A stretch of 63,750 bases of DNA, taken from the IMG/VR virus record IMGVR_UViG_3300045988_109082; one strand, 5' to 3'. Each line of letters begins with the position of its first letter. The stretch's first letter is position 1. The translations under genes were made by a program, and so were the position numbers. Source of the DNA: a virus. The notes under the pieces are model-generated. The model made no database searches and was not told where the DNA came from. It saw only the letters and a program-made list of their open reading frames with translations. Below, one piece after another: positions 12,101 through 63,750 of this stretch.

Positions 12101-15046
12101 CGTGCGCGACAACTGGCCCACCATGCTCGCCAAATCGGAGAACATGGGGCCCGCGTCACCCACCGCGTCAAACACCTGGCTGAACCCGTCGCGGACACCG
12201 GAACTGAAATCGCGGATTCCACCACCGGACTGCTGCAACACGCGACTCAACCCAGTGATGCCCTCGCCTACGATCTGGCCCGCGTCACCGAACACCGCGC
12301 GAGTGGTGTCCTTCAACGAGTACGCGGCGTCGCCAATATCCTTGAAAGCGTTGCGCATCTTGTCCTGCGCGTCCTGCGCACCAGCGCTCCAAGCCTCCAA
12401 AGTCTCTTGGAACTTGATGGTGTGAACGGCCTTGTTGGCTTTCTCCAAAGCCTCGGAAAAACCTTGGATACCGTTCTCGGTCTTCGCCAGAGTACCCAAC
12501 GTGCCCTCAAACACGCCTATCAGGTCGAACACGGACGATTTCAGATAGCCGCCCTGTTCGATGGCCTTTTCCATCGCCTTAGAGACTTGACCGGTACGTT
12601 CGGCGGTATCCACCCAGTTCGCCCACTTCTCGGCCACGTCGGAAATGTAGGAGGCCATGCGGGGCAGATACTGGCTGGACTGGTCGCCCAAGCCGAGGAA
12701 CGCGCGGGCCAGTGACTGCAAGCCCGGGTTCAGTTCGGACACCGCGAGACGAGTGTTCTCGAAGATACGCGGTAGTTGGTCGGCTTCGTTCGACTGGCGC
12801 ACCACGTCGATAAGCCCGTTGAGCACCTTGCCTTCCTCGACGGCGATACCGTTCAAACCCTTGGACAGTGAGGGGGCCACGTCGTTGGCGAGACGGTACA
12901 GGTTATCCCCGTACTCGTTCCAAGCGTTGTCGCCCAACTCCTTGTTCAGGTTCGCCAGCGAGGTCTTGGTGACATCGAACTTTTCCTTCAAATCACCGAA
13001 CACCCGGTAGCCCACGTAGCCTGCGGACGCCAGACCAGCCAACGCGGCGGGAGCGGCCAACGCGGCCTTGCTCATGGACACGAGGCTGACGCCGACACCG
13101 CCCGCAGTGCGTCCCAGGTTCAGGAGTCCGGCACCCAACGCGGTGACGCCGGCACCGAGAATCGACCACTTGGGAACCACCTTGTCGAGCTTGTCGAACA
13201 GGTTCACAAGACTGTCGAACTGGTTCTGCACGCCCTTCAAACCGGTCGCACCACTGGTCATGCCGGAGAAAATCTTGCCAAGGTCTGTGCCCTTGAAATT
13301 AGCGAAGATGTCGATGGTGCGGGGGCGGGTGAAGTAGGCGAGATGGGCTCGGGCCACCGCGGTCTCCAAGTCCAAATCCATCTTCAGCTCGTCGTTCTTG
13401 TCCTCGAATTTCTTCAGCTTCTCCTCGGCGCGATGCATTTGCAGGTCGAGGTCGGCTTCAAGCTCCCAACGACGTTCGGGATTGGCTTTGATCTTGGCGG
13501 CGGTCTCACGCATCGACGCGATGATTCGTTCCTGATCGACCTGCCAGTCCACGGGAATGTCGAGGCGCGTATGACGCAGCTTCTCCAACCGGGCTTCGAG
13601 CTTGTCGGCGTTGTCCTCCCACACCTTGACGCGGACGTTGACCTCATGCTCCCGGTCGAGTTTGGCGCGCAGCTTCTCCGCGTCATACATCAGTTCCGCG
13701 TATTTTTTGTCCCATTGGGTCTTATCCAATGTGGCTTTGGCGGTGATCGGCTTGCGGGATGCGAAGTCGCGCAGCTTCTTCAGCTGGTCGAAGGTATTGT
13801 TGAGCTCCTTGCCGAGGTTCTTGTCGATGCCCATGGGCTTGAACTTCTGGAACGCGGCGGAAAGCGCGTTGATCTGGGTCTCCTGCTCGTCGAACAGGCT
13901 GGTCAGTTCGCGGGCGGTCTTGCGCTGCTTGTCCATCGTGCGGCGCGAATCGTTCTGTACCGCGTTGAGGCGTTTGACGCTGGTTCCCGTGTCTTCGAAC
14001 ACCTCGGCCAACGCCTTCTGGCCGGCCGTGAGCTTCGACAGCTGCTGGAGCTGCCTGCGGTTCAGCTTCTCGGACTTCTCCTCAAGGTCGAGAATCTTGT
14101 TCAGGCCGGAGAACAGCCGGTCGTTCTCACGGTTGAAGTCTTTGAGCCGCGCCTTGCGCATGAGCTCGGCGTCCGAATACTTGGAGATGGCGTCGGTCGC
14201 CTTCTCCCACTTCTTGGTGTTGGAGTCGATAAGACGCTGCTGTGCCGCTACCTTGTTGTCGAAATCGGCGGAGAAGAGCTTGTTCTGCGCCTTCTTGTTC
14301 TCCGCTATCTCCTTGCCTACCGCCTTCAGGTCGGCTTTCAGGCCCTTGAGCTGTTCGCGCAGCTCGGGGATGCGACTGTTCTTGTACCAGTTCGCGGTGT
14401 CGATGTTCCCGGCCTCGCGCAGCTCCTTCATCTTCTTGATGGACCAGTCAAGGGTCTTACTGACATCGGCTTGGCTGCGGGTCAACTGCTCCTGACGTTT
14501 GCGCCCGTTCTCGATGGCCTCCGCGTACATGTCGTAGGCGGCGTGCTCGTCCTTGATGAGCATGGTCTGCCTGCGGGATGCGGCCGTGGCCTCCTTGTCG
14601 TAGAGGGCGCGTGCCGAACGCATGCGGGAGAGACTGTCCTGAAGACTGTCGGCCACGGATTTCTGCGACTTCTTGACGAACGCCTCCGTCTGGCCGGCGG
14701 TCCGCTTGATCTGGTTGGAAAGCCGGTGAATCTTCTCATTGAACGACGTATCGTCCAAGTCGAACCTGCTTGTGACCGGCTTCTTCTCCCACTGCTTCCG
14801 CTGGGCCTGCATGGCCTTGTCGATGGCACGCAAGCCGGACGGGTCGCCGTCGATCTTCACCACGTTGGTGAGGGTCTTGCCGTCAAGGTCGCGCATCTGC
14901 TCCTTGGCGCGTGCGACGCCCTTCGTGTTCACATCAACGGTGACCTCAGGGTGACGAGAATGCAGTTCCGCATTGAGAATCTTCCAGAAATTATCGGTGT
15001 CCGGGCGAATATCGACGCCGACCGCGCCAGCGGAATACAAGGCCAT
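9182..15046 (-). CDS. Tape measure protein
   Basis: 1954-aa ORF between the chaperone genes and the tail tip. Long coiled-coil N-terminal third, multiple hydrophobic stretches, C-terminal GGRIYGPGTSTSDSIPAMLSNGEMVL motif. Confidence 0.9.
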   Translation of the reverse strand: MALYSAGAVGVDIRPDTDNFWKILNAELHSRHPEVTVDVNTKGVARAKEQMRDLDGKTLTNVVKIDGDPSGLRAIDKAMQAQRKQWEKKPVTSRFDLDDTSFNEKIHRLSNQIKRTAGQTEAFVKKSQKSVADSLQDSLSRMRSARALYDKEATAASRRQTMLIKDEHAAYDMYAEAIENGRKRQEQLTRSQADVSKTLDWSIKKMKELREAGNIDTANWYKNSRIPELREQLKGLKADLKAVGKEIAENKKAQNKLFSADFDNKVAAQQRLIDSNTKKWEKATDAISKYSDAELMRKARLKDFNRENDRLFSGLNKILDLEEKSEKLNRRQLQQLSKLTAGQKALAEVFEDTGTSVKRLNAVQNDSRRTMDKQRKTARELTSLFDEQETQINALSAAFQKFKPMGIDKNLGKELNNTFDQLKKLRDFASRKPITAKATLDKTQWDKKYAELMYDAEKLRAKLDREHEVNVRVKVWEDNADKLEARLEKLRHTRLDIPVDWQVDQERIIASMRETAAKIKANPERRWELEADLDLQMHRAEEKLKKFEDKNDELKMDLDLETAVARAHLAYFTRPRTIDIFANFKGTDLGKIFSGMTSGATGLKGVQNQFDSLVNLFDKLDKVVPKWSILGAGVTALGAGLLNLGRTAGGVGVSLVSMSKAALAAPAALAGLASAGYVGYRVFGDLKEKFDVTKTSLANLNKELGDNAWNEYGDNLYRLANDVAPSLSKGLNGIAVEEGKVLNGLIDVVRQSNEADQLPRIFENTRLAVSELNPGLQSLARAFLGLGDQSSQYLPRMASYISDVAEKWANWVDTAERTGQVSKAMEKAIEQGGYLKSSVFDLIGVFEGTLGTLAKTENGIQGFSEALEKANKAVHTIKFQETLEAWSAGAQDAQDKMRNAFKDIGDAAYSLKDTTRAVFGDAGQIVGEGITGLSRVLQQSGGGIRDFSSGVRDGFSQVFDAVGDAGPMFSDLASMVGQLSRTFGGTFASALRTVSPLISTIAKGATGVAQAFDSLPGPVKSIITLWATFGRAGKTAFESLKTGMLQNIQSTMRYQKMLSELGLSAEQASVKMGTLIKAMNQLRSGNYAGILSGAISEVNSLGMAAEANSKKLLLPGNAAKETSKDMGGLVGANGQAIASIRSAGEQAEQQSGRFGSLKTGVKNLWDAFGGWTTVAGLGISAGIAVIGNAISDYTTKAEASKQAMDKVLDGMKGIKSNAKEAADAFNDFKSETTKQWDDPSLLFGKDGGGAVTEWLVKVSGGYTSAADAAKRLGINTSTLTDAVSGNEAGYKKLVKQLEAQSKETYKASDQYGMMVEKQTDAAIAADTLLQALKKQHKEGLEKSVKEQMKYLRSLEQISDSSSALSDKLSSLATTVKANGQAFKENGELADANNAAYVRTDKAMKDVAATALLSAHQLLSYGEKNGQVEEYTQKAANSIYEAREAIVQQAQAAGMSEEAAERYADSLGLIPSDVGTTITAHSEIAQDAVDKLVQGISGLTDGEKEIVIRLREAGVVTTLDGVLSLVEQLMKGDLSERDLTLLLNAKGNARWETGEVKENLLALGMSKKAYKWLFSGEGNAEERMQKVRDELGYLNLTDEQIQWILDCIDHASGKIKDVEKNKVPAAKGVSFNIDADDDDAQVKLASYRESDGEKLAENNILVSAVDNTSEGTESAKANVFSVPHEWWSWLFGLDGTSGPSGIAKNAVESIPQQWQSILTGSGNTTLFSNIANNAVRNIPQQWLSMFTGLGNTPSFAGTARSMIGKVPTYHSTTLNAMGNALDVASNLLSTLRSIAGRTWTAFIDTISGGGGHATGGRIYGPGTSTSDSIPAMLSNGEMVLRAAAVKKIDALYGRSFLNTLNAVGSVEKAMQPSAFALNARRKSQAYATGGRVSTANGSWNVEVNPVIKVELPANTGNTTNNTVTINGVESSDRRIADAVETLVASATRKRNMRPR

Positions 15047-15103
15047 GAGAAAACCTCCGGGAGGATAAACGAAAACCCCTCGTGGAATGCGAGGGGTTTT
15101 CTG

Positions 15104-15993
15104 CTAGAAACTGTTGCCGCCGAACACGGCACCCAACATGCCCGTGATCTGGGCGAACGACTTGCCCGCCGTGGAGAACGATTTCGGCCCGACCGAATCG
15201 GGCTTGACCACGGTGCCGGGCGGATAGACGGGCTGCGGCTTCGACTTCTTGTCGCCCATCATGCGGGCTATCATCACGCGAATCATCTCAAGCTGGTTCG
15301 TCATGCTGAGCATCAGCATCTGCGACTGCCCGTAGGTGAGGTAGGAAAGACGCGGCATGCTTTTCGCGTCTTCCCGTGGGAGCGGATGGTGTTCGGCCAT
15401 CCACGCGCGGTACAGGCTCCCGTCAACGCCCTCCAAACCGTCCAGCAGGTCGCACAGCCATGACGGCTCCATGCGGCCCATACTGGCGGGGAGGTTGATG
15501 TTGTAGAAGCGTTGGAAGTCGGCCGAGACCGCTACTCTGCATTCTCCAAGCGCGTCTTGGAGGCGCTTGATTTTCCCAGTGCCACCGAATAGAACGTGGT
15601 CAGGGACACCAGCAGCACGTACAGGTTCTCCAAGGTGCGGCCACGGGTGAACTCGTCCCACTGCTTCTCGTCGGCCGCGATTTCGCGGTAGAACATGTCC
15701 GCGTACTGCACGATCTCGGCCATGAGGATGACGGCTTCGGACTCGTCGTACTTCGGCTTCTTCTTCGGCTTGTCGGCCTCATCGTCGCCGAATAAGCCCA
15801 TGTCGCCCAGTTTCCCGTTGCGTTCGGAGATGCGCTGCCATGTCACCGAGAACTCGGCGGACTGGGCCACGTTCAGCTCCTGCGGCTTCGCCATGTCGGG
15901 CAGTCCCGCGAACAGCGGCTGCTCCTTGAGCTCGTCCCATGTCTCCGGCATCTTCGCGTTGTCGGTCGTGTTCTTAGTGTTCTCTGCCATCAT
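15104..15993 (-). CDS. Tail assembly chaperone, G-T type -1 frameshift product
   Basis: The frame of ORF 15104..15661 joins 15532..15993 after a -1 slip at GGGAAAA. Predicted junction ...VALGK|IKRLQDALGE... Confidence 0.75.
15532..15993 (-). CDS. Tail assembly chaperone (G-like, zero-frame product)
   Basis: 153 aa, acidic, between the major tail and tape measure genes. Confidence 0.8.
   Translation of the reverse strand: MMAENTKNTTDNAKMPETWDELKEQPLFAGLPDMAKPQELNVAQSAEFSVTWQRISERNGKLGDMGLFGDDEADKPKKKPKYDESEAVILMAEIVQYADMFYREIAADEKQWDEFTRGRTLENLYVLLVSLTTFYSVALGKSSASKTRLENAE
15571..15577 (-). promoter_or_regulatory. Slippery heptamer G_GGA_AAA for programmed -1 frameshift
   Basis: Zero frame reads CTG GGA AAA TCA; the -1 frame reads GGG AAA ATC AAG and stays open for a further 155 codons. 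Confidence 0.75.
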
Positions 15994-26880: not shown

Positions 26881-26991
26881 GATGACTCCTTACACGTAGG
26901 GGGCGGAGCCGGTGGGAGCGTGGCGAGCGAGCATTCCAACGGGGTTAATCCAAATACAGGGGATGTTGGTCCACGAGCCACCGGCTCCTAG

Positions 26992-27062
26992 AGGCAATCC
27001 CGAGAATCGAACTCGAACCTGCGCTTTACGAGAGCGCCGCTCTTCCAATGAGCTAGAATGCC
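26992..27062 (-). tRNA. tRNA-Thr (anticodon CGT)
   Basis: Hand-folded 71-nt cloverleaf. Acceptor GGCATTC/GATTGCC with one U-U mismatch. Anticodon arm GCGCT-CTCGTAA-AGCGC. T-arm TCGAG-TTCGATT-CTCGG. No encoded CCA. Confidence 0.8.
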
Positions 27063-27188
27063 ATGCCTCCCACTAGGGGAGCGCTGTTCAGTTATCGCCG
27101 CACGGCATGGCATGAAGCCGCCGCCGACATCCGGCGATGACCCAAGAAGCCGTCACCGCCTGTAATCGCCTCTTCTTGAAGGCGTTGT

Positions 27189-27260
27189 GGTACCGGAGTG
27201 GACTCGAACCACCGACCCTATGACCGTAGCCATACGCTCTAGCCGCTGAGCTACCGGCAT
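27189..27260 (-). tRNA. tRNA-like gene with a one-nt-short anticodon loop (reads best as Arg-ACG)
   Basis: 72 nt. Good D-arm (GCTC-AGCGGCTA-GAGC) and T-arm (GGTGG-TTCGAGT-CCACT). Acceptor has an A1-C72 mismatch. The anticodon stem TATGG/TCATA encloses only 6 nt (CTACGG). Confidence 0.55.
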
Positions 27261-27262
27261 CG

Positions 27263-27333
27263 CATACCCGGTGAGAATCGAACTCACGTCACCGGTTTTG
27301 GAGACCGGTACTCTACCATTGAGCTACGGGCAT
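27263..27333 (-). tRNA. tRNA-Trp (anticodon CCA)
   Basis: 71-nt cloverleaf. Acceptor ATGCCCG/CGGGTAT. Anticodon arm CCGGT-CTCCAAA-ACCGG. T-arm GTGAG-TTCGATT-CTCAC. Confidence 0.85.
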
Positions 27334-27600
27334 ATAGGGATAGTCGAACCCCCACGACAGTCAGGGCCTTGACCAGCCTCACCGACCATCTCGCGGATGA
27401 TGCAAGATTTGCACTTGCGAACCTTTTACGGTTTACGGCCTAGCAAGCCGCCGCATTCGTCTACTCTGCCAATCATCCACGGCCACGCCCCCGGTCCAAG
27501 AAAACAACACCAATACAAAACGGAATCCCAGAGAACTCGACCTTACAAATCCTCGTAAAACTGTTTTGACGGTTCGGTTTTCAAAAAAGGCGTGGCCTAG

Positions 27601-27674
27601 TCGTGAGAGAGGGAATCGAACCCACAACACACCGGGTTTGAGCCGGCGTCCTCTACCAATTGGGATATCTCACG
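27601..27674 (-). tRNA. tRNA with anticodon CAA on a class-I (short variable loop) body
   Basis: 74 nt. Acceptor CGTGAGA/TCTCACG, A73. Anticodon arm GCCGG-CTCAAAC-CCGGT. 5-nt variable region. T-arm GTGGG-TTCGATT-CCCTC with one mismatch. Confidence 0.6.
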
Positions 27675-41989: not shown

Positions 41990-42231
41990 TCCCACATCTC
42001 CTTTTCGTTGTTCCTGTAGTTCTTGCTTCTGCTTCTGTTTATCCCGCCCCATATGCCTTGCAGCGGGTAGCCGTTTATCAGGGCATGTTCCGCCGCGTAC
42101 CGTGCGCATTCGCATATCGCCGGGCATGTGGAGCAGGCTTTGAGCGCCAATCGTTCCTCCTTCCGCGTGGCGGGGAAGAACAAGTCAGGGTCCATGTCCC
42201 GGCAAGCGGCCTTGTCACGCCAGTTGCCCAT
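41986..42231 (-). CDS. whiB: WhiB-family transcription factor (copy 1)
   Basis: 81 aa from MGNWRDKAACRDMDPDLFFP. Four Cys (C..C..C..C) and a GIWGG turn. Confidence 0.85.
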   Translation of the reverse strand: MGNWRDKAACRDMDPDLFFPATRKEERLALKACSTCPAICECARYAAEHALINGYPLQGIWGGINRSRSKNYRNNEKEMWE

Positions 42232-42275
42232 CTCCCTTTGCCCTTCGCATACAGTGCTTGCGGATACGTTCCACA

Positions 42276-46208: not shown

Positions 46209-46425
46209 TTCGATTCCTTCTTCTGCTCCTGTTCACGCCACCCCATACGCCTTGCAATGGGTAGCCGCTGATTCTGTCGTGTTGCGCCGCGTACCGTGCG
46301 CATTCGCATATCGCCGGACATTGGGCGCAGGCCTTGAGCGCCAATCGTTCCTCGCTGGACGTGGTTGGGAAGAACAGGTCAGGGTCCATGTCACGGCACG
46401 CGGCCTTGTCACGCCAGCCGCTCAA
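46201..46425 (-). CDS. whiB: WhiB-family transcription factor (copy 2)
   Basis: 74 aa. MSGWRDKAACRDMDPDLFFP...CAQCPAICEC...GVWGG. Confidence 0.85.
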   Translation of the reverse strand: MSGWRDKAACRDMDPDLFFPTTSSEERLALKACAQCPAICECARYAAQHDRISGYPLQGVWGGVNRSRRRNRNE

Positions 46426-46461
46426 TTCAATTCCTTCTTCGCGTTTTGAGACTGCTTACGC

Positions 46462-57234: not shown

Positions 57235-57633
57235 ATGGCTAATCCAAATGATTTCCGCGAAATGTCTGCGTTCGCCTTGGCATTTGCGACGGAGTATAAA
57301 AAGTACATGAAGGCGCACAAGGTAAGGCAGCGTCAGATTGCTGAATACCTCGGTTTCACCGAAGCGTATGTCAGCGAAAGGGTCAATGGCAAAAGGGCCA
57401 TCGACACCAACGACGTAGATGCTCTTGCCACATTGTCGGGCACCACTGGCCGTTCGCTGATGATCGAACTGGCTCGCCTCACCAAGGAAACCTTGCGCCA
57501 GCCGGTATCCGAGACAGCCTCGGTGGCGTCCCAGCTTGAAAAGGTCATGGGCAAGAAAATCGAGATCGAGAGAGCGGCCTATAAGGATAAGAACAAGCAA
57601 GCGGAGTCTGGTCGCGGTGAAGACTTGGACTGA
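57235..57633 (+). CDS. CI-like repressor (XRE HTH)
   Basis: 132 aa. RQRQIAEYLGFTEAYVSERVNGKR is HTH-like. Followed by an ImmA-like peptidase gene. Confidence 0.75.
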   Translation: MANPNDFREMSAFALAFATEYKKYMKAHKVRQRQIAEYLGFTEAYVSERVNGKRAIDTNDVDALATLSGTTGRSLMIELARLTKETLRQPVSETASVASQLEKVMGKKIEIERAAYKDKNKQAESGRGEDLD

Positions 57634-58021
57634 CCTCACCCTTGAGGCACGTCACGTGGGAGTCCTCATAGAGGATAAGACATTCGATGGTTCGCAGTGC
57701 GGGGAATACGACCCAGTATCGCGTACCGCGTTCATAGACCCCACCATGAGCATGGAGCAGCTGGTATGCACGTTGCAGCATGAGCTTATCCATGCCAAGC
57801 ACTTCGATGACGGACTCAGACTATTGAGCCGCGAGAAGGAAGAGCGCCTGACGCGCAAGGAAACCGCATTGGCGTTGATAAACCCCGTGGACTACATGCA
57901 CGCCGAAGACCTGTACGGGGGAGAACCCTACGCGATGGCACAGGAACTCGGCATCACCGTCAGCGTCCTGCAGGATTACCGGCATTGGTTGCATGACAAT
58001 TTATCCACCAGAGCCGCCTGA
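57617..58021 (+). CDS. ImmA/IrrE-family metallopeptidase (anti-repressor protease)
   Basis: 134 aa from GTG. HEXXH motif present (LQHELIHAKH). Start uncertain. Confidence 0.7.
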   Translation: MKTWTDLTLEARHVGVLIEDKTFDGSQCGEYDPVSRTAFIDPTMSMEQLVCTLQHELIHAKHFDDGLRLLSREKEERLTRKETALALINPVDYMHAEDLYGGEPYAMAQELGITVSVLQDYRHWLHDNLSTRAA

Positions 58022-58071: not shown

Positions 58072-58431
58072 ATGAAAAAGCTGTCCGCTGTAGGAGCCGT
58101 GCTAATATCCTTGGCCTTATTGACTGCTTGTGGCCAAACCTCGGAAGTCGAGAAAAAAGAGGACGTTCCGTCGTTGGCCACCATCGCCCGTGAATGCGAC
58201 GTGCATTTCTTCTACAAGCAGGACGATAGCGAAAAATGGTCACTTAACGCAGTCACGCAGGACGAATTCGATTGTGTGGTGGAAAAAGGAACCCCGACGA
58301 ATATTGCCGACGAAATCACCAAAGCTCAGAGTAGCGGAGAGAAGAAAAGCGGGAAAATCGAGGAGAACGGGTATTCCTACCAATGGTCGCTAAGTGGAGT
58401 CACGCCCCACATGACAATCAACGAACTTTGA
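58072..58431 (+). CDS. Lipoprotein (prophage moron)
   Basis: 119 aa. Lipobox LLTAC. Confidence 0.75.
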   Translation: MKKLSAVGAVLISLALLTACGQTSEVEKKEDVPSLATIARECDVHFFYKQDDSEKWSLNAVTQDEFDCVVEKGTPTNIADEITKAQSSGEKKSGKIEENGYSYQWSLSGVTPHMTINEL

Positions 58432-58462
58432 CACCAAGTTAGTCCGAGAGAAGTGAGCAGTA

Positions 58463-58834
58463 ATGAGCGACAACAATCCGCAGAAGCCGATTCCAGGCAG
58501 TCAACCGGCGACGGTCAAACCGGCGCAGCCGCAACAACAGGTTTCCGACGTGGACAAAACCACCGAACAACTGCAACGTGAGGTACTGCTGTTGCAGAAG
58601 AAGCAGTTGGAGAAGGAGGCGCAGGCCAAACCGGTCACGTTCGGCACCATCGTCGGCGCAACGCTGGTCGCATGGGTTATCATCGGAGTCGTCGGAGGTA
58701 TCGTCGCCGCGATAGGCTTCGGCTTCATGATGCATAATATTCAGGAGCAGCGGGATCAGGAGCAGCTAGAGCAATCCCTGTACTCATATTACGATTCAAA
58801 ATACAGTGACGATTCCGGTTCCTACGATTACTGA
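58463..58834 (+). CDS. Membrane protein (prophage moron)
   Basis: 123 aa. Central TM region FGTIVGATLVAWVIIGVVGGIVAAIGFGFMM. Confidence 0.7.
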   Translation: MSDNNPQKPIPGSQPATVKPAQPQQQVSDVDKTTEQLQREVLLLQKKQLEKEAQAKPVTFGTIVGATLVAWVIIGVVGGIVAAIGFGFMMHNIQEQRDQEQLEQSLYSYYDSKYSDDSGSYDY

Positions 58835-58851: not shown

Positions 58852-58889
58852 TGGTCTCGTTCTCCTGTATTGGAGGACGAGACCATTTT
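58852..58889 (+). terminator. Intrinsic terminator
   Basis: TGGTCTCGTTCTCC-6 nt-GGAGGACGAGACCA followed by TTTT. Confidence 0.75.
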
Positions 58890-58911
58890 GTATACCACTA
58901 CAATATGATGG

Positions 58912-59415
58912 TCAGGTGTGTTTCCTAGTGGAGGGCCATACCTCATGGTTCGGGTCCCACCAGAGAATGTGAAACTCATTGCCTACAAGGAAACCGTACA
59001 GGCGTTCGGTTCCGCCCAAGCGGAACCGGGCCAACGCATCGCCTTCGCGTTCATAGTATTTCGCCAGCCGGTCCTGTGGCGTCTGGTTGGGGCATTGGGT
59101 GAAATCAGGGTAGCAGGTGAACGCCTGATATGAGGGGCTAATGATCTCGCCCACCGTCGCCTTTTCGAAGTCACGCATCTTCAACAGCAGCAGTCGATGC
59201 TCCTCGTCGCTCATGTGCGCGAGCGACCATGGACAGTCGGCCTCAAGGTCAACGCAGTCGAAACGGAATACGATGCGACGGTTCACGGAATCCTTGGGAA
59301 TCTCCGTGGCGGATTCGGGGACATGATAGCTTTTCGCCACGTGATGCGCGGGCACACGTTTTGAAGAGCTCGGGGCTTTGGCCTTGATGCTCTTGGTTTT
59401 GCTGCGGTGGCCCAC
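58912..59415 (-). CDS. Unknown protein coupled to the Panacea antitoxin (candidate toxin)
   Basis: 167 aa, GTG start sharing one nt with the upstream TAG. Basic N-terminus. No motif recognised. Confidence 0.6.
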   Translation of the reverse strand: MGHRSKTKSIKAKAPSSSKRVPAHHVAKSYHVPESATEIPKDSVNRRIVFRFDCVDLEADCPWSLAHMSDEEHRLLLLKMRDFEKATVGEIISPSYQAFTCYPDFTQCPNQTPQDRLAKYYEREGDALARFRLGGTERLYGFLVGNEFHILWWDPNHEVWPSTRKHT

Positions 59416-59852
59416 TAGTCGGTAAGGCTCCCATAGTATTCGGCCATGGCCGCTTCAGTTATCTCGGTGTTGCAGATGGCTCCCTGCGGGAGATCGCCTC
59501 GCGCATCCCTCCACGGGCGTTCGCTGTGGGTAAGCTCGCTGAGCTGGTAGGCTCCCATTTTCCCGTAGGCATTCAACACCGCGTCTATGGTGCTGGTGCC
59601 GTCTTCGTCTATGTTCGACGGGTCGCCGTGAATATCGCCGCGCGTGATCTTGAACATGCCCTTGTGCGCATGGTATAGGTCGGGGCACACCGGGCCGTTG
59701 GCCCATGCCTCGAATCGCTCGGGGAACAGACGCCGTTCATCCCATACGAGGGACCATGCCTGTGAATAGTAGCAGAGCTTTTCCAGCTTCATGGTGGTCA
59801 TGACGCCGAGCTTGTCCAGCACGTAAGCGGCCACGTCGAATATGCTTGTCAT
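59415..59852 (-). CDS. Panacea-domain (DUF4065, SocA/GepA-like) antitoxin
   Basis: 145 aa. TTMKLEKLCYYSQAWSLVWDERRLFPERFEAWANGPVCPDLY matches the DUF4065 core pattern. Confidence 0.75.
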   Translation of the reverse strand: MTSIFDVAAYVLDKLGVMTTMKLEKLCYYSQAWSLVWDERRLFPERFEAWANGPVCPDLYHAHKGMFKITRGDIHGDPSNIDEDGTSTIDAVLNAYGKMGAYQLSELTHSERPWRDARGDLPQGAICNTEITEAAMAEYYGSLTD

Positions 59853-59942
59853 GGTGCGCCTCCGTAACGTTCCTTCCGCTGGACATTCAAGGTGATTAAC
59901 TTACTCTTCCATTGTATGGCCGGCAAGTTTCGGCGCGCCAGT

Positions 59943-61334
59943 TCACGCCTTCCATTCGATCTGCTTCAGGCCAAGCCCGTCGCTTATCGTCTCCATGCCT
60001 CGCATCAAATCCTCCACCGGCACAGTGCGGTAATGCTCGCTCATGGCTATGCTCGAATGGCCGACGATGCGTTGGATGATGCCGGGATCAACCTTCATGT
60101 GGAACAGGAGCGATACGACGGAATTGCGGCATTCATGCCCGTACCGGTTCTCGTAGTCGGGTATGCCCGCCCTGCGCATGAGGTCGCGGAAACCGGCCCT
60201 GTCATCCAACGCGGCCAACGGCATACCCTCGCGCGTCCTGAATATCAGGTTATACGGGTTCGGGATGATATTCTCCGTGGCCTCCAGATACCGGTGCACG
60301 ACGGTGCCCAACTGGGGGATTATCGGCACAACCTTGCCTCTCGCGGACTTCGGCGGCGTCAAAGCGTACCCCTTGCACAGGTGTATCATGTCGTATCCGT
60401 CCGGCACCCTCCACCGGTATCGGGGACAGCTCGAAGGCCGTTTGAAGCCGCACGGGTATCTTCCGTCCCTGCCGGGCTCCCCACACCCATGCTCCTTGTC
60501 GAGGCTTTCCAGTTTCCAGTTCACCGTGTAGGTGCCTATCCATATCTCGCCGCTGTCCGGGGTTTCCAACGTCTTGTCCCGCCACAGGTCGAGATCGTCC
60601 AACGTGGCTCCCAGTATCTCCCCCTGCCTCATGCCGGTGAGCAGACGCCACCATTGGCGTGCCCCCAGAAACAGGTCGTCGGAGGACGCTTCGAGCATGT
60701 CCTGCATCTGCTCCACGGTGAACGCCTTGCGGTCCTGCGTGCCGCTGCGCCTGTCCGCCGACACGGCCACGGGCCCGTTGATGGTGCGCCGGTCCCCGGC
60801 CAATCCCATGTCCCTGCGTTTCGGCCTTGCCGCGCTGGTGACCGGACTGGTGGGTATCAGCCGGTCGGCCACCGCCGCCTTGAATATCTGGTTAAGGATG
60901 TTGTAGAAGCCAAGCTGCCGGTTGTACGAGCATGGGGTGCCGTCGAGGTTGCGCATGTTGGCTATCATGCGCTGCACCGCCGAGGCGGTCACTTCGCCCA
61001 GCTTCTCGTTCGCGTACTTGCACAGGTGCACGCTTATGAGGCTCGCGTAGTTGTTGATGGACTTGGGTTTCAGGTCGCGTCGTTTCAGCTCGAACCAGCG
61101 TTCCGCGTACTCGCCGAGCCGGGTGGCGCGGTCTACGCCCATGCCCCATTCGGTTTTCTCCTTGAGGGCTTCGGCTATTTTCCTGTCGCATTCCTTGTAG
61201 GTCTTGGCGGACACCCATCGGCCGTCCACCTTGGCCTGCCAGTTCACGTATGTCTTTACCGTGCCGTCCTTGAGTGTTTTCCGCTGCTCGTGGCGGATGG
61301 GGTAGACCGCTCCGGTTTTCCTTATCCTAGGCAT
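59943..61334 (-). CDS. int: Tyrosine integrase
   Basis: 463 aa. LTGMRQGEILG, HECRNS, IVGHSSIAMSEHY give the R...HxxR...H...Y pattern. Confidence 0.9.
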   Translation of the reverse strand: MPRIRKTGAVYPIRHEQRKTLKDGTVKTYVNWQAKVDGRWVSAKTYKECDRKIAEALKEKTEWGMGVDRATRLGEYAERWFELKRRDLKPKSINNYASLISVHLCKYANEKLGEVTASAVQRMIANMRNLDGTPCSYNRQLGFYNILNQIFKAAVADRLIPTSPVTSAARPKRRDMGLAGDRRTINGPVAVSADRRSGTQDRKAFTVEQMQDMLEASSDDLFLGARQWWRLLTGMRQGEILGATLDDLDLWRDKTLETPDSGEIWIGTYTVNWKLESLDKEHGCGEPGRDGRYPCGFKRPSSCPRYRWRVPDGYDMIHLCKGYALTPPKSARGKVVPIIPQLGTVVHRYLEATENIIPNPYNLIFRTREGMPLAALDDRAGFRDLMRRAGIPDYENRYGHECRNSVVSLLFHMKVDPGIIQRIVGHSSIAMSEHYRTVPVEDLMRGMETISDGLGLKQIEWKA

Positions 61335-61344
61335 TCAGCATCCT

Positions 61345-61369
61345 TCATTCTCCAACATTCTCCAACAAA
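61345..61369. repeat. 25-bp direct repeat copy 1 (TCATTCTCCAACATTCTCCAACAAA), itself a tandem CATTCTCCAA x2
   Basis: Identical to 61589..61613. Lies 11 nt upstream of the int start codon. Confidence 0.9.
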
Positions 61370-61588
61370 CAATCCGTGGCGAATGGTATTCCAATGGTAT
61401 ACCAATCGTATCAAATCGTTGGAATTCCGCCGTTCTTTCCGTGGGAGCCGTTGATTTCATTATACGTTACTGGATGTGGAAGGTGTGCTGAAACGCCCGC
61501 TGATTAGACATTGAGACCCCTTGCGAACGCCAATGTTTGCAAGGGGTCTCGTCGTATCTCGGGGTAAGATTTCCGGCGTCTAGGAATG

Positions 61589-61613
61589 TCATTCTCCAAC
61601 ATTCTCCAACAAA
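61589..61613. repeat. 25-bp direct repeat copy 2
   Basis: Identical to 61345..61369. Confidence 0.9.
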
Positions 61614-61924
61614 TCTTCGGATTGAGTTGCGGAACGGTTTCGGCGTGGCGAAAATCGACGGTGATTGCCGATGGGAAAAAATCCGCGAAGCGCTCTAGTT
61701 ATATATCTCTATCAATAACTTGTTTATTACCTATATAAGGTTAGTGCTGCTGAAATACCATCAGATAGGCTGTAGCAATAATGCAAAGTATTGCTGCTGA
61801 GATATTGTGTGCTATGGTAGTAGACATAAAAGAAAACGCCTCCCGGTGCTGGAACACCGAGAGGCACAAAGGAAAACGATGCAACATTTTCCGCGTCCAG
61901 ATTACCGCTAGGCGTGGAGGAAAG

Positions 61925-62455: not shown

Positions 62456-62950
62456 ATGACCCTACTGTGGCAGGATGCGCGCCGCAAAGCGCAAGAAACC
62501 CTTGACAATTACTGGGACCACTCCTATCCGGTCAAGATCGTGAGCATATGCAAGGCCATGGGTGTCACGCCCTACACCGGTGAGCTTCCCGAAGGTGTCA
62601 GCGGCATGATAGTCAAGGAACACAGCAGCGAGCCCCGAGCCTACACGGAACGCACCGAACCACAGACAAGACGCAGGTTCACGCTCGCACACGAACTGGG
62701 GCATTTCGTGGAACGAGTCACCATAGCGCAGGACAACGATTTCGCTTTCATGGACAAACGTTCCGACGATTACGACATCCACGAATTCTACGCGGACGAG
62801 TTCGCCGGTGCGCTGCTCATGCCCGAACACGATTTCATCCAGAAAGTCAAGAACGATGGGATGATCGCGGCCGCAGCATATTTCGGCGTCTCGCTGGCCG
62901 CGGTTCGAAAACGCATGGAACGGTTGCGCAAGCACGGGGCCGACATCTGA
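62456..62950 (+). CDS. ImmA/IrrE-family metallopeptidase (second copy)
   Basis: 164 aa. Motifs FTLAHELGHFV and EFYADEFAGALLMP. Confidence 0.75.
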   Translation: MTLLWQDARRKAQETLDNYWDHSYPVKIVSICKAMGVTPYTGELPEGVSGMIVKEHSSEPRAYTERTEPQTRRRFTLAHELGHFVERVTIAQDNDFAFMDKRSDDYDIHEFYADEFAGALLMPEHDFIQKVKNDGMIAAAAYFGVSLAAVRKRMERLRKHGADI

Positions 62951-63455: not shown

Positions 63456-63728
63456 CTACTTGCCGGCCATGCGTACGGGGTTGTATGCGACTCCGAATCC
63501 TGCGGCGATGATGCCTGCGGCGGTACTGATGAAACCGCCGATTTCGGGGGAGCCGAAGCTCATGAACCCGAGTCCGATGACCGAGGCGACGAGCGTGACC
63601 ACGTAGATGACGGTGCGCACCGTGTCATTGAATACGGGAGTGTACGGCGTGGCCGTATGGTCGGGAATATTGGGCGTGCCGGTTTCCGTGATTTCTTCGA
63701 GTTGGGTGTCCGGCGTGTTGTCGGTCAT
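63456..63728 (-). CDS. Holin-like protein (two TM segments)
   Basis: 90 aa. TM1 VIYVVTLVASVIGLGFMSF, TM2 IGGFISTAAGIIAAGFGVAY. Immediately downstream of the endolysin on the circular map. Confidence 0.65.
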   Translation of the reverse strand: MTDNTPDTQLEEITETGTPNIPDHTATPYTPVFNDTVRTVIYVVTLVASVIGLGFMSFGSPEIGGFISTAAGIIAAGFGVAYNPVRMAGK

Positions 63729-63750
63729 GTTTTGCTCCGATCAAAAAAAT
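63632..63750. repeat. Terminal direct repeat copy 2, identical to 1..119
   Basis: See 1..119. Confidence 0.95.

Follow-up and report, generated by a model that had tools for sequence, protein, structure and literature searches.

The window analysed here, a stretch of viral DNA of 63,750 nucleotides, carried on its minus strand the genes int, panA and panT, in that order (Table 1). The int product matched PF00589 (E 5.9e-11), with weaker matches to SAM-like N-terminal domains. An initial annotation of the same DNA had described a 145-aa Panacea protein 3' of int, containing KLEKLCYYSQAWSLVWDERRLFPERFEAWANGPVCPDLY, and a 167-aa open reading frame after it, containing KTKSIKAKAPSSSKR, FRFDCVDLEADCPWS and HILWWDPNHEVW. 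Both were recovered, and the location by the integrase was confirmed, the pair being phage-borne and on the same strand as int. The plus strand reads cacta at positions 59413-59417, which is TAGTG on the minus strand; because of this junction, the GTG start of panT and the TAG stop of panA have one G in common, again as annotated. A consensus scan of the int-panA spacer found no sigma-70 promoter or terminator, and it is therefore possible that panAT is transcribed together with int. The neighbours of the pair were int and genes for a TM protein, a lipoprotein, a peptidase and an HTH protein.

Table 1. Features of the int-panA-panT region, with positions in the window
Feature	Position	Strand	Basis or remark
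int, tyrosine integrase, 463 aa	59943-61334	-	ORF and PF00589
int-panA spacer, 90 nt, holding the panA ribosome-binding site	59853-59942	-	sequence
panA ribosome-binding site GGAGG	59859-59863	-	6 nt 5' of the panA ATG
panA, stand-alone Panacea antitoxin, 145 aa, without N-terminal HTH	59415-59852	-	PF13274
panT ORF, 167 aa, GTG start	58912-59415	-	ORF
panT basic disordered N-terminal tail, residues 1-46	59278-59415	-	pLDDT, pI
panT core, residues 47-167, predicted RelE/BECR-fold domain, predicted endoribonuclease	58912-59277	-	AF2, Foldseek, PADLOC
R116 codon of panT	59068-59070	-	conserved residue
R138 codon of panT	59002-59004	-	conserved residue
D154 codon of panT	58954-58956	-	conserved residue
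H157 codon of panT	58945-58947	-	conserved residue
Hairpin terminator, 14-bp stem, between panT and convergent plus-strand genes	58852-58885	.	terminator scan
Probable attP region, 5' of int	61335-61620	.	direct repeats, hairpin, homology ends

Positions 1-119 of the window were identical to positions 63632-63750, i.e. the window is a circularly closed genome of 63.6 kb, and genes for terminase, portal, head, tape measure and endolysin were present on it. It is the genome of a temperate Bifidobacterium longum siphovirus, and in its lysogeny module the pair is located next to the probable attP region. Upstream of int there was a direct repeat of 25 nt (61345-61369 and 61589-61613; family D6), together with a hairpin in the probable attP region (61515-61551), and the homology to integrated copies stopped at 61492 or 61557 on this side. 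At the opposite end, homology to other prophages stopped at 58862, inside the terminator, where the conserved int-panAT cassette ends. The int-panA-panT block showed 98-99% identity in the integrated prophages L001-L007, and the cassette was 99% conserved while the adjoining cargo differed among prophages, a lipoprotein and a membrane protein being variable. Many human-gut B. longum prophages carry the pair in near-identical form; if it is a defence or addiction module, it could influence phage dynamics in the gut of infants and adults. GenBank phages gave no match to the locus by megablast, and a tblastn search of these phages with the toxin gave one weak match, in an unannotated faecal phage. 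When loci with toxin homologues were searched for an adjacent integrase by single-sequence phmmer with the integrase of this phage, a test of limited sensitivity, it was found at 0 of 62 genome loci and 1 of 32 viral loci. Adjacency to the integrase was therefore rejected as a trait of the whole family, and the linkage to int is particular to this phage lineage.

The pairing of antitoxin and partner that had been annotated was also observed elsewhere. With the narrower alignment (A3), 63 independent loci in other genomes were obtained, 61 of which had a qualifying upstream ORF; a Panacea ORF (PF13274) was located directly 5' of the toxin homologue in 52 of these 61. The paired loci came from Actinomycetota, Thiomargarita, Acidobacteriota and Chloroflexi. 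A conserved same-strand partner within 100 nt, as expected of PanA genes, is supported by the 1-nt overlap here and by the 52 loci elsewhere. Thus panA and panT form a conserved, translationally coupled pair (TAGTG) that co-occurs across phyla.

PanA matched PF13274 (SocA_Panacea) over residues 23-114 (E 8.9e-18; 65.7 bits against a cut-off of 25.7) and phrog_1281 (E 6.4e-36). No DNA-binding domain was found in PanA, a Panacea protein of the stand-alone type. Its sequence includes the GPV motif, at ANGPVCP (ANGPVCPDLY in the translation), the importance of which was described by Kurata 2022 (PMC8832971). Neutralisation by direct binding has been shown for other stand-alone PanAs (Kurata 2022, PMC8832971; Ernits 2023), and by analogy PanA would neutralise PanT in the same way (type II). 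It is very improbable that PanA is instead a SocA-like proteolytic adaptor (type VI) that hands the toxin to ClpXP. SocA is the founding Panacea protein, and PanA matched the NCBIfam model SocA_antitoxin (NF047745; E 3.1e-13), but with a score of 49.8 bits, far under the equivalog cut-off of 190. In addition, PanT is unrelated to SocB, and ClpXP and Lon were dispensable for neutralisation by PanA in Kurata 2022 (PMC8832971), where PanA-PanT complexes were found to form.

For the 167-aa protein, 34 word-indexed homologues were found, and a profile search retrieved 1705 cluster representatives at E <= 1e-3, of which 428 also passed E <= 1e-10. Because homologues are so numerous, panT is, judged from its sequence relatives, a genuine gene and no chance ORF. 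The N-terminus had been described as basic, and the tail indeed had a pI of 10.5 with 10 K/R, residues 1-27 being modelled with pLDDT <50; among 56 relatives the median tail was 43 aa long with a pI of 10.45. Three residues, R138, D154 and H157, were invariant in 135 relatives, and E84 and R116 were near-invariant. No Pfam family was matched by PanT, and the names given to it in databases were all 'hypothetical protein'. Against the NCBIfam model NF046006 (MAG6450), PanT scored 21.9 bits (cut-off 40; E 2e-4) over only its C-terminal 37 residues, and 49 of the 56 relatives matched this model weakly, with a best E of 6.1e-8. These matches indicate that PanT is akin to the MAG6450 family, but outside its membership. 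Homology at the HMM level was also found to phrog_8366. Literature searches on MAG6450 and on DUF4065 in Bifidobacterium prophages yielded nothing relevant besides the Panacea papers.

The PanT core was modelled by AF2 with high confidence (pLDDT 94.2, pTM 0.87). The initial annotation had proposed a potentially novel toxin fold and a Foldseek search as a check; when this search was run on the model, nearly all top PDB matches were RelE-superfamily toxins, 46 of the top 50 being RelE, HigB, YoeB, YafQ, HP0892/4, ParE2 or Cami1. The best match was RelE (1wmi_A; prob 0.84, TM 0.51 by target length), itself weak at E 0.07, and the PDB matches overall were alike in kind and statistically weak (E 0.07-3, TM about 0.5). 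The top list for an earlier PanT model of lower confidence was likewise dominated by the RelE superfamily, while the Foldseek search of BFVD viral structures was uninformative. The core fold is thus predicted, from the model, to match the RelE/ParE (BECR) toxin fold remotely. Like RelE, HigB, YoeB and YafQ, which are type II TA toxins, the PanT core is predicted to comprise a strand at the N-terminus, two or three helices and an antiparallel sheet of three strands, and its C-terminal end carries conserved basic and His residues. Unlike these toxins, it is about 120 aa long rather than 85-95 aa, with an extra strand and helix, it is preceded by a basic N-terminal tail of 45 aa, and its partner is a Panacea protein instead of RelB, HigA, YefM or DinJ. 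Its conserved set, R/R/D/H(+E), is non-canonical in comparison with theirs, and sequence similarity was undetectable: the Pfam and NCBIfam RelE, ParE, YafQ, HigB and YoeB models were not matched by PanT or the 56 relatives, searches of PDB sequences with PanT alone and with the 56-sequence profile gave only chance matches to ribosomal proteins, and hhalign of the 135-sequence PanT profile with E. coli YafQ (its sequence checked against PDB) gave nothing, with a probability of 0.3.

A sequence link was found with a different RNase domain. PanT residues 64-159 aligned to positions 192-280 of the 284 positions of the PADLOC model for Menshen NsnC (PDLC03891), i.e. to its C-terminal domain (E 7.1e-5), leaving the N-terminal part of the model uncovered, and the same domain was matched by 45 of the 56 relatives, with a best E of 4.6e-8. 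This domain, PB-BECR1, is predicted to be an RNase; it is YafQ-like and has been assigned to the BECR superfamily (PMC12065111). The PanT core is, at the level of profile comparison, homologous to PB-BECR1 over nearly its whole length. PanT differs from NsnC in being free-standing, with a disordered tail of 46 aa in place of the inPIN N-terminal domain; genes for NsnA (ParB-DUF262) and NsnB (ABC ATPase) are absent near the pair, and control would be exerted by an antitoxin for PanT versus an ATPase complex for NsnC.

The proposal of a novel fold in an unrecognised toxin was accordingly not upheld, and we regard it as extremely improbable. The lack of Pfam and PDB sequence matches and the uninformative database names would be in its favour, but the AF2 model matched RelE-superfamily toxins almost exclusively, the family has HMM-level homologues in NsnC PB-BECR1, the MAG6450 family and phrog_8366, and it had already been catalogued (see below). 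It is also improbable, if less so, that PanT has a RelE/ParE fold without RNase activity and is a ParE-like gyrase poison or a non-catalytic binder of the ribosome or RNA. ParE toxins, which are not nucleases, have this fold too; the Foldseek matches included ParE2 and a 'YoeB/ParE' protein, and the canonical sequence motif of RelE, YafQ and HigB was not detected in PanT. Against this, the ParE matches ranked far under those of RelE and HigB, the strongest sequence link was to a predicted RNase, and the invariant Arg/Asp/His set is placed at the end of the beta-sheet, which is typical of BECR RNases; the label given to T1 members by Kurata (HHpred-based) was mRNase.

The partner had been called unrecognised, and this part of the annotation did not hold. 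Homologue P0021 was 55% identical to PanT over 98% coverage, and the B. italicum protein WP_133064606.1 (P0208) fell in the 90% identity cluster of P0021. In Dataset S1 of Kurata et al. 2022 (PNAS, PMC8832971), WP_133064606.1 is listed as a predicted pT1/T1 toxin, with order A-T and gap -1, and the same dataset also has a B. longum subsp. infantis pair. By this sequence relationship PanT is a member of the catalogued pT1/T1 family, and neither this family nor this type of system is new. The T1 pairs of PMC8832971 share with this locus the toxin family, a Panacea-only 'noNTD' antitoxin, the A-T order and the gap of -1; the present copy is different in that a B. longum phage carries it, immediately 3' of the integrase gene and next to attP. 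A validated PanA-PanT pair of B. ruminantium (Kurata 2022) is from the same genus and also has a stand-alone PanA, the A-T order and a toxin inhibiting translation. However, this toxin is a PemK/MazF-family protein (cluster pT27/T25) with an unrelated fold, and it was therefore rejected as a member of the same family.

The pT1 cluster had 217 occurrences in the table of 1268 predicted pairs in PMC8832971. Among the predicted PanT clusters it ranks in the top two by size, and yet it is without a Pfam model or a validated toxin-neutralisation pair. The three T1 members tested were labelled 'mRNase' on the basis of HHpred; one of the three, from C. cadaveris, was toxic in E. coli, and the two phage-borne members were non-toxic. 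The toxic member was not rescued by its own PanA in E. coli, and no T1 pair reached complete TA validation in that study (PMC8832971). The T1 member orf161 of Salmonella phage Emek (YP_006560566.1), reported as non-toxic, was aligned with PanT profile A5 by hhalign (prob 97.8, E 1.1e-12) and is a true homologue. In Emek orf161, Ala stands in place of R138 and Phe in place of H157, whereas the present PanT keeps all of the conserved residues missing in Emek. Since Emek orf161 is without R138 and H157, its lack of toxicity would most simply reflect a dead active site, and it is no argument against the enzyme predicted here.

Taken together, panA and panT probably form a T1-cluster toxin-antitoxin pair of the PanA-PanT type, located in the lysogeny module of a temperate B. 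longum siphovirus. PanT would be an endoribonuclease that blocks translation, with R138, D154 and H157 (invariant) and E84 and R116 (near-invariant) as its putative active site, an arrangement that may parallel the Glu/Arg/His sets in YoeB and YafQ. The basic tail might aid binding to RNA or the ribosome, or might be the docking site for PanA. The pair could plausibly serve in prophage maintenance or abortive infection. More speculatively, the pair in a lysogen could kill cells infected by another phage, with loss or displacement of PanA as the trigger for abortive infection, or it could penalise loss of the prophage. For the T1 cluster, the present analysis contributes a model-based assignment to the RelE/BECR class, R138/D154/H157 and E84/R116 as targets for mutation, a possible explanation for Emek and the link to Menshen.

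A tentative alternative, which we consider possible though rather unlikely, keeps the RNase effector and differs only in regulation and purpose. Here the pair would be a sensor-effector module and not an addiction TA system: PanT would stay inactive in a stable complex with PanA until a superinfecting phage provides the trigger, Panacea being the sensor, and the toxin might be little toxic without this trigger. A sensory role for Panacea was proposed by Ernits et al. 2023, and in Menshen NsnC, part of a validated antiphage system, the effector domain is a homologue of the toxin core. Defence or exclusion cargo is typically placed as the pair is, within a lysogeny module and next to genes that vary among prophages, here those for a lipoprotein and a membrane protein. 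The lack of toxicity of the two phage-borne T1 members in E. coli would also be concordant with such a module, but for Emek a dead active site would be the simpler reason.

By the link to Menshen, T1 PanT and PB-BECR1 would belong to one RNase family. It also allows a wider reading, to which we attach a low probability: that the pair functions partly in counter-defence or ties toxin release to prophage excision or loss. In the first form, PanA could neutralise host NsnC-type RNase effectors, as T4 Dmd does RnlA; in the second, the position in the int transcription unit could couple release of the toxin to excision or loss of the prophage. The connection between T1 PanT and PB-BECR1 appears not to have been drawn in the Panacea and Menshen papers, and the word Panacea has 0 occurrences in the Menshen paper (PMC12065111).

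Natural variation was also observed in panT. The variant P0004 has a 97-bp insert; an exact copy of it occurred once in viral contigs and not at all in the window, which gave no indication of a repeated mobile element. A natural PanA-PanT fusion (P0006) exists as well, and in natural insertion and deletion variants of panT the junctions were located just 5' of codon 38.

The genes int, panA and panT form three consecutive ORFs on the minus strand from position 58912 to 61334 (see the table). The ORFs, their positions, the quoted peptides, the one-base TAG/GTG overlap and the Panacea core described in the initial annotation were all confirmed. PanA scored 65.7 bits against PF13274 (cut-off 25.7), the matched residues including the GPV motif. 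The plus strand reads c-a-c-t-a at 59413-59417 (coding strand TAGTG), and the TAG stop of panA and the GTG start of panT therefore have one G in common; a GGAGG lies 6 nt 5' of the panA ATG. Translational coupling thereby links the Panacea gene to panT, whose product is a predicted RelE/BECR-like protein with a basic, disordered tail. The proposal of an "integrase operon" was borne out as regards the consecutive order of the three genes on one strand, but a single transcript is no more than possible, as a consensus scan found no promoter or terminator between int and panA.

Coordinates of the features discussed (positions in the window, except for the loci named)
Feature	Position	Strand	Basis or remark
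int, tyrosine integrase, 463 aa	59943-61334	-	PF00589, E 5.9e-11
panA, stand-alone Panacea protein, 145 aa	59415-59852	-	PF13274, residues 23-114
panT, 167 aa	58912-59415	-	ORF reading
Hairpin terminator	58852-58885		terminator scan
attP region (probable)	61335-61620		homology to integrated prophages stops at 61492 or 61557
25-nt direct repeat TCATTCTCCAACATTCTCCAACAAA	61345-61369 and 61589-61613		flanks junction / putative core
Hairpin GAGACCCCTTGC...GCAAGGGGTCTC	61515-61551		in attP region
119-aa lipoprotein-like ORF and 123-aa single-pass membrane ORF	58072-58834	+	between repressor/peptidase genes and terminator
DUF6782/M78-like peptidase	57536-58021	+	overlaps end of HTH_3 repressor-like gene
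Second metallopeptidase-like gene, 164 aa	62456-62950	+	phrog_87 metallo-protease, phrog_2439; far side of attP
panT variant locus L142	3856-4190
panT variant locus L146	4380-4520
Emek orf149/orf161, PanA/T1 pair	L151 (JQ806763) 14764-15637		62-nt overlap, agrees with the Kurata table

The pairing of the Panacea antitoxin with the 167-aa partner, as initially annotated, was upheld in a survey in which one genome per species was scanned for the signature WWDPxHx[VI]W. This yielded 63 loci, the majority in Actinomycetota and others in Thiomargarita, Acidobacteriota, Chloroflexi and Sphaerochaeta. A same-strand ORF ending beside the toxin homologue was present at 61 of the 63 loci, and carried PF13274 at 52 of these 61. 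As the antitoxins were about 50% identical to PanA and the toxins about 35% identical to PanT, the two genes travel together, and their co-occurrence is kept across genomes. In the window the pair sits in the phage lysogeny module. Integrase adjacency is not a trait of the family: phmmer with the window integrase found an integrase beside panT homologues at none of 62 genome loci and at 1 of 32 viral loci.

A word-indexed search returned 34 PanT homologues, every one unnamed or annotated as "hypothetical protein", from Bifidobacterium longum, B. animalis, B. mongoliense and B. italicum; judged from these sources, the host of the phage is therefore B. longum. A profile built from 17 homologues and searched against 1.84 billion cluster representatives matched 1705 proteins at E <= 1e-3, of which 428 reached E <= 1e-10; almost all were 110-175 aa in length. 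On this sequence evidence, the 167-aa panT ORF is a real, widespread gene. The PanT core carries an Arg/Asp/His set, R138, D154 and H157 (numbered as in the window protein), that was invariant in a 135-sequence alignment, in which D56, E84, R116, G141, W152, W153 and P161 were at least 90% conserved; the family is marked by the signature R-L-x-G ... L-W-W-D-P-x-H-x-V-W-P-S. Over the first ~45 residues sequence conservation is low, but the tail is consistently basic (median tail 43 aa, pI 10.45; core pI about 6.9).

No Pfam family was matched by PanT or 56 of its relatives. Positions 192-280 of the 284 in the PADLOC NsnC model aligned with PanT residues 64-159 (E 7.1e-5), and the same region was matched by 45 of the 56 relatives (best E 4.6e-8). 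The NCBIfam MAG6450 family gave 21.9 bits with PanT, under its 40-bit cut-off, and was matched by 49 of the 56 relatives; phrog_8366 was likewise matched by 49 (best E 9e-16). In the Menshen antiphage system NsnC acts as the effector; its C-terminal domain, "PB-BECR1", is placed in the BECR (barnase-EndoU-colicin E5/D-RelE) superfamily, YafQ being the nearest structure (PMC12065111). That paper makes no mention of Panacea.

Two AlphaFold2 models were made, one of full-length PanT with 17 sequences (pLDDT 75, residues 1-27 disordered) and one of residues 45-167 with 135 sequences (pLDDT 94.2, pTM 0.87; topology beta-alpha-alpha-beta-alpha-beta-beta-beta). A sequence-only comparison with solved structures gave no match. 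Foldseek, which the initial annotation had proposed for this protein, ranked RelE-superfamily toxins highest in the PDB for both models. They made up 46 of the best 50 matches of the second model, with weak scores, and comprised RelE, HigB, YoeB, YafQ, HP0892/HP0894, HigB2, ParE2 and the CARF-RelE protein Cami1. The best match, Pyrococcus horikoshii RelE (1wmi_A), was itself weak (E 0.07, probability 0.84; TM 0.51 by target length). Because the matches agree in kind and the NsnC homology points the same way, the models are best read as a divergent RelE/BECR fold, and not as the potentially novel toxin fold suggested at first.

Nor was the partner "unrecognised". Panacea and PanA were defined by Kurata et al. 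2022, who predicted 1268 PanAT pairs (PMC8832971). In their Dataset S1, B. italicum WP_095613121.1, a PanA with no N-terminal domain, is paired with WP_133064606.1 of toxin cluster pT1/T1 (order A|T, gap -1), and a B. longum subsp. infantis pair is placed in the same cluster (PMC8832971). WP_133064606.1 falls in the same 90%-identity cluster as a homologue (P0021; WP_133064606.1 itself is P0208) that is 55% identical to the window PanT over 98% of its length. The window pair is a PanAT, whose toxin belongs to an already published predicted cluster and has, by prediction, a known fold. With 217 entries in the Kurata table, against 218 for the MqsR-like pT2, pT1 is among the two largest clusters. 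The validated Bifidobacterium toxin, B. ruminantium PanT, was rejected as a relative, being an unrelated PemK/MazF protein.

Three T1 members, each labelled "mRNase", have been tested: the Clostridium cadaveris toxin was toxic, E. coli not being rescued by its PanA, and those of the E. coli MOD1 prophage and Salmonella phage Emek were non-toxic (PMC8832971). Emek orf161 is by profile comparison a true homologue of the PanT family (hhalign against the 135-sequence profile, probability 97.8, E 1.1e-12, 112 columns), and it also matched NsnC (E 6.6e-6). It aligned Ala at the R138 position and Phe at the H157 position, lacking two of the three invariant residues, and is probably a catalytically dead copy. 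This loss would simply explain its non-toxicity, which is then no argument against an active enzyme in the window.

By analogy with its family, PanT would cleave RNA and so arrest translation, and PanA would block it by direct binding. Other stand-alone PanAs inhibit by direct binding, ClpXP and Lon being dispensable (PMC8832971; PMC10440598). A role of panAT in abortive-infection defence or prophage addiction is a matter of speculation. The value of the result lies in a predicted fold and active-site assignment for the T1 cluster, its link to the Menshen PB-BECR1 domain, an explanation of the non-toxic Emek homologue, and a panAT cassette abundant in human-gut B. longum prophages.

Rare natural variants are altered in the 5' portion of panT at a single site, at about 59304 in the window, just before codon 38. 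One (P0004) has a 97-bp insertion in place of the basic tail, shared with just one other viral contig; the other (P0006) has a 116-bp deletion that joins PanA in frame to residue 38 of the toxin, plus R51C. These are two independent rearrangements with a common junction. The intact form, with 377 member sequences in its cluster, is far commoner than either variant (1 and 16).

The first 119 nt of the window (positions 1-119) recur with 100% identity at 63632-63750, which indicates a circularly closed (or terminally redundant) contig of 63,631 bp. It encodes terminase, portal, major head protein, tape measure and endolysin, and represents the whole genome of a temperate siphovirus-type phage rather than a piece of chromosome. 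Integrated copies in gut metagenomes carry int-panA-panT at the end of the prophage, adjoining host mazG, rpsT and lepA. Homology to these copies (98-99% identity) runs from 58862 to 61492 or 61557, limits that place attP just upstream of int and the cassette end inside the terminator. The TCATTCTCCAACATTCTCCAACAAA repeats, which include a degenerate copy at 61335-61359, may be arm sites for the integrase. About 40 near-identical panA-panT copies were found in IMG/VR viral contigs, mostly at the contig end.

Past the terminator lie convergent plus-strand genes for HTH repressor-like, metallopeptidase-like, lipoprotein and membrane proteins. The last two are replaced by different genes in related prophages, and this stretch fits variable lysogenic-conversion or superinfection-exclusion cargo. 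The phage carries two ImmA/IrrE-type metallopeptidase-like genes (plus strand, in the 57235-58021 region and at 62456-62950), which may represent two repressor-cleavage switches. Elsewhere, a five-tRNA cluster (26991-27674, minus strand) comprises Thr, Trp, Ser and Leu tRNAs and one unassigned tRNA (27187-27261) that ARAGORN calls with an odd two-base anticodon, and the early region contains a 229-nt direct repeat of 81% identity (42020-42248 and 46214-46442, 4.2 kb apart).
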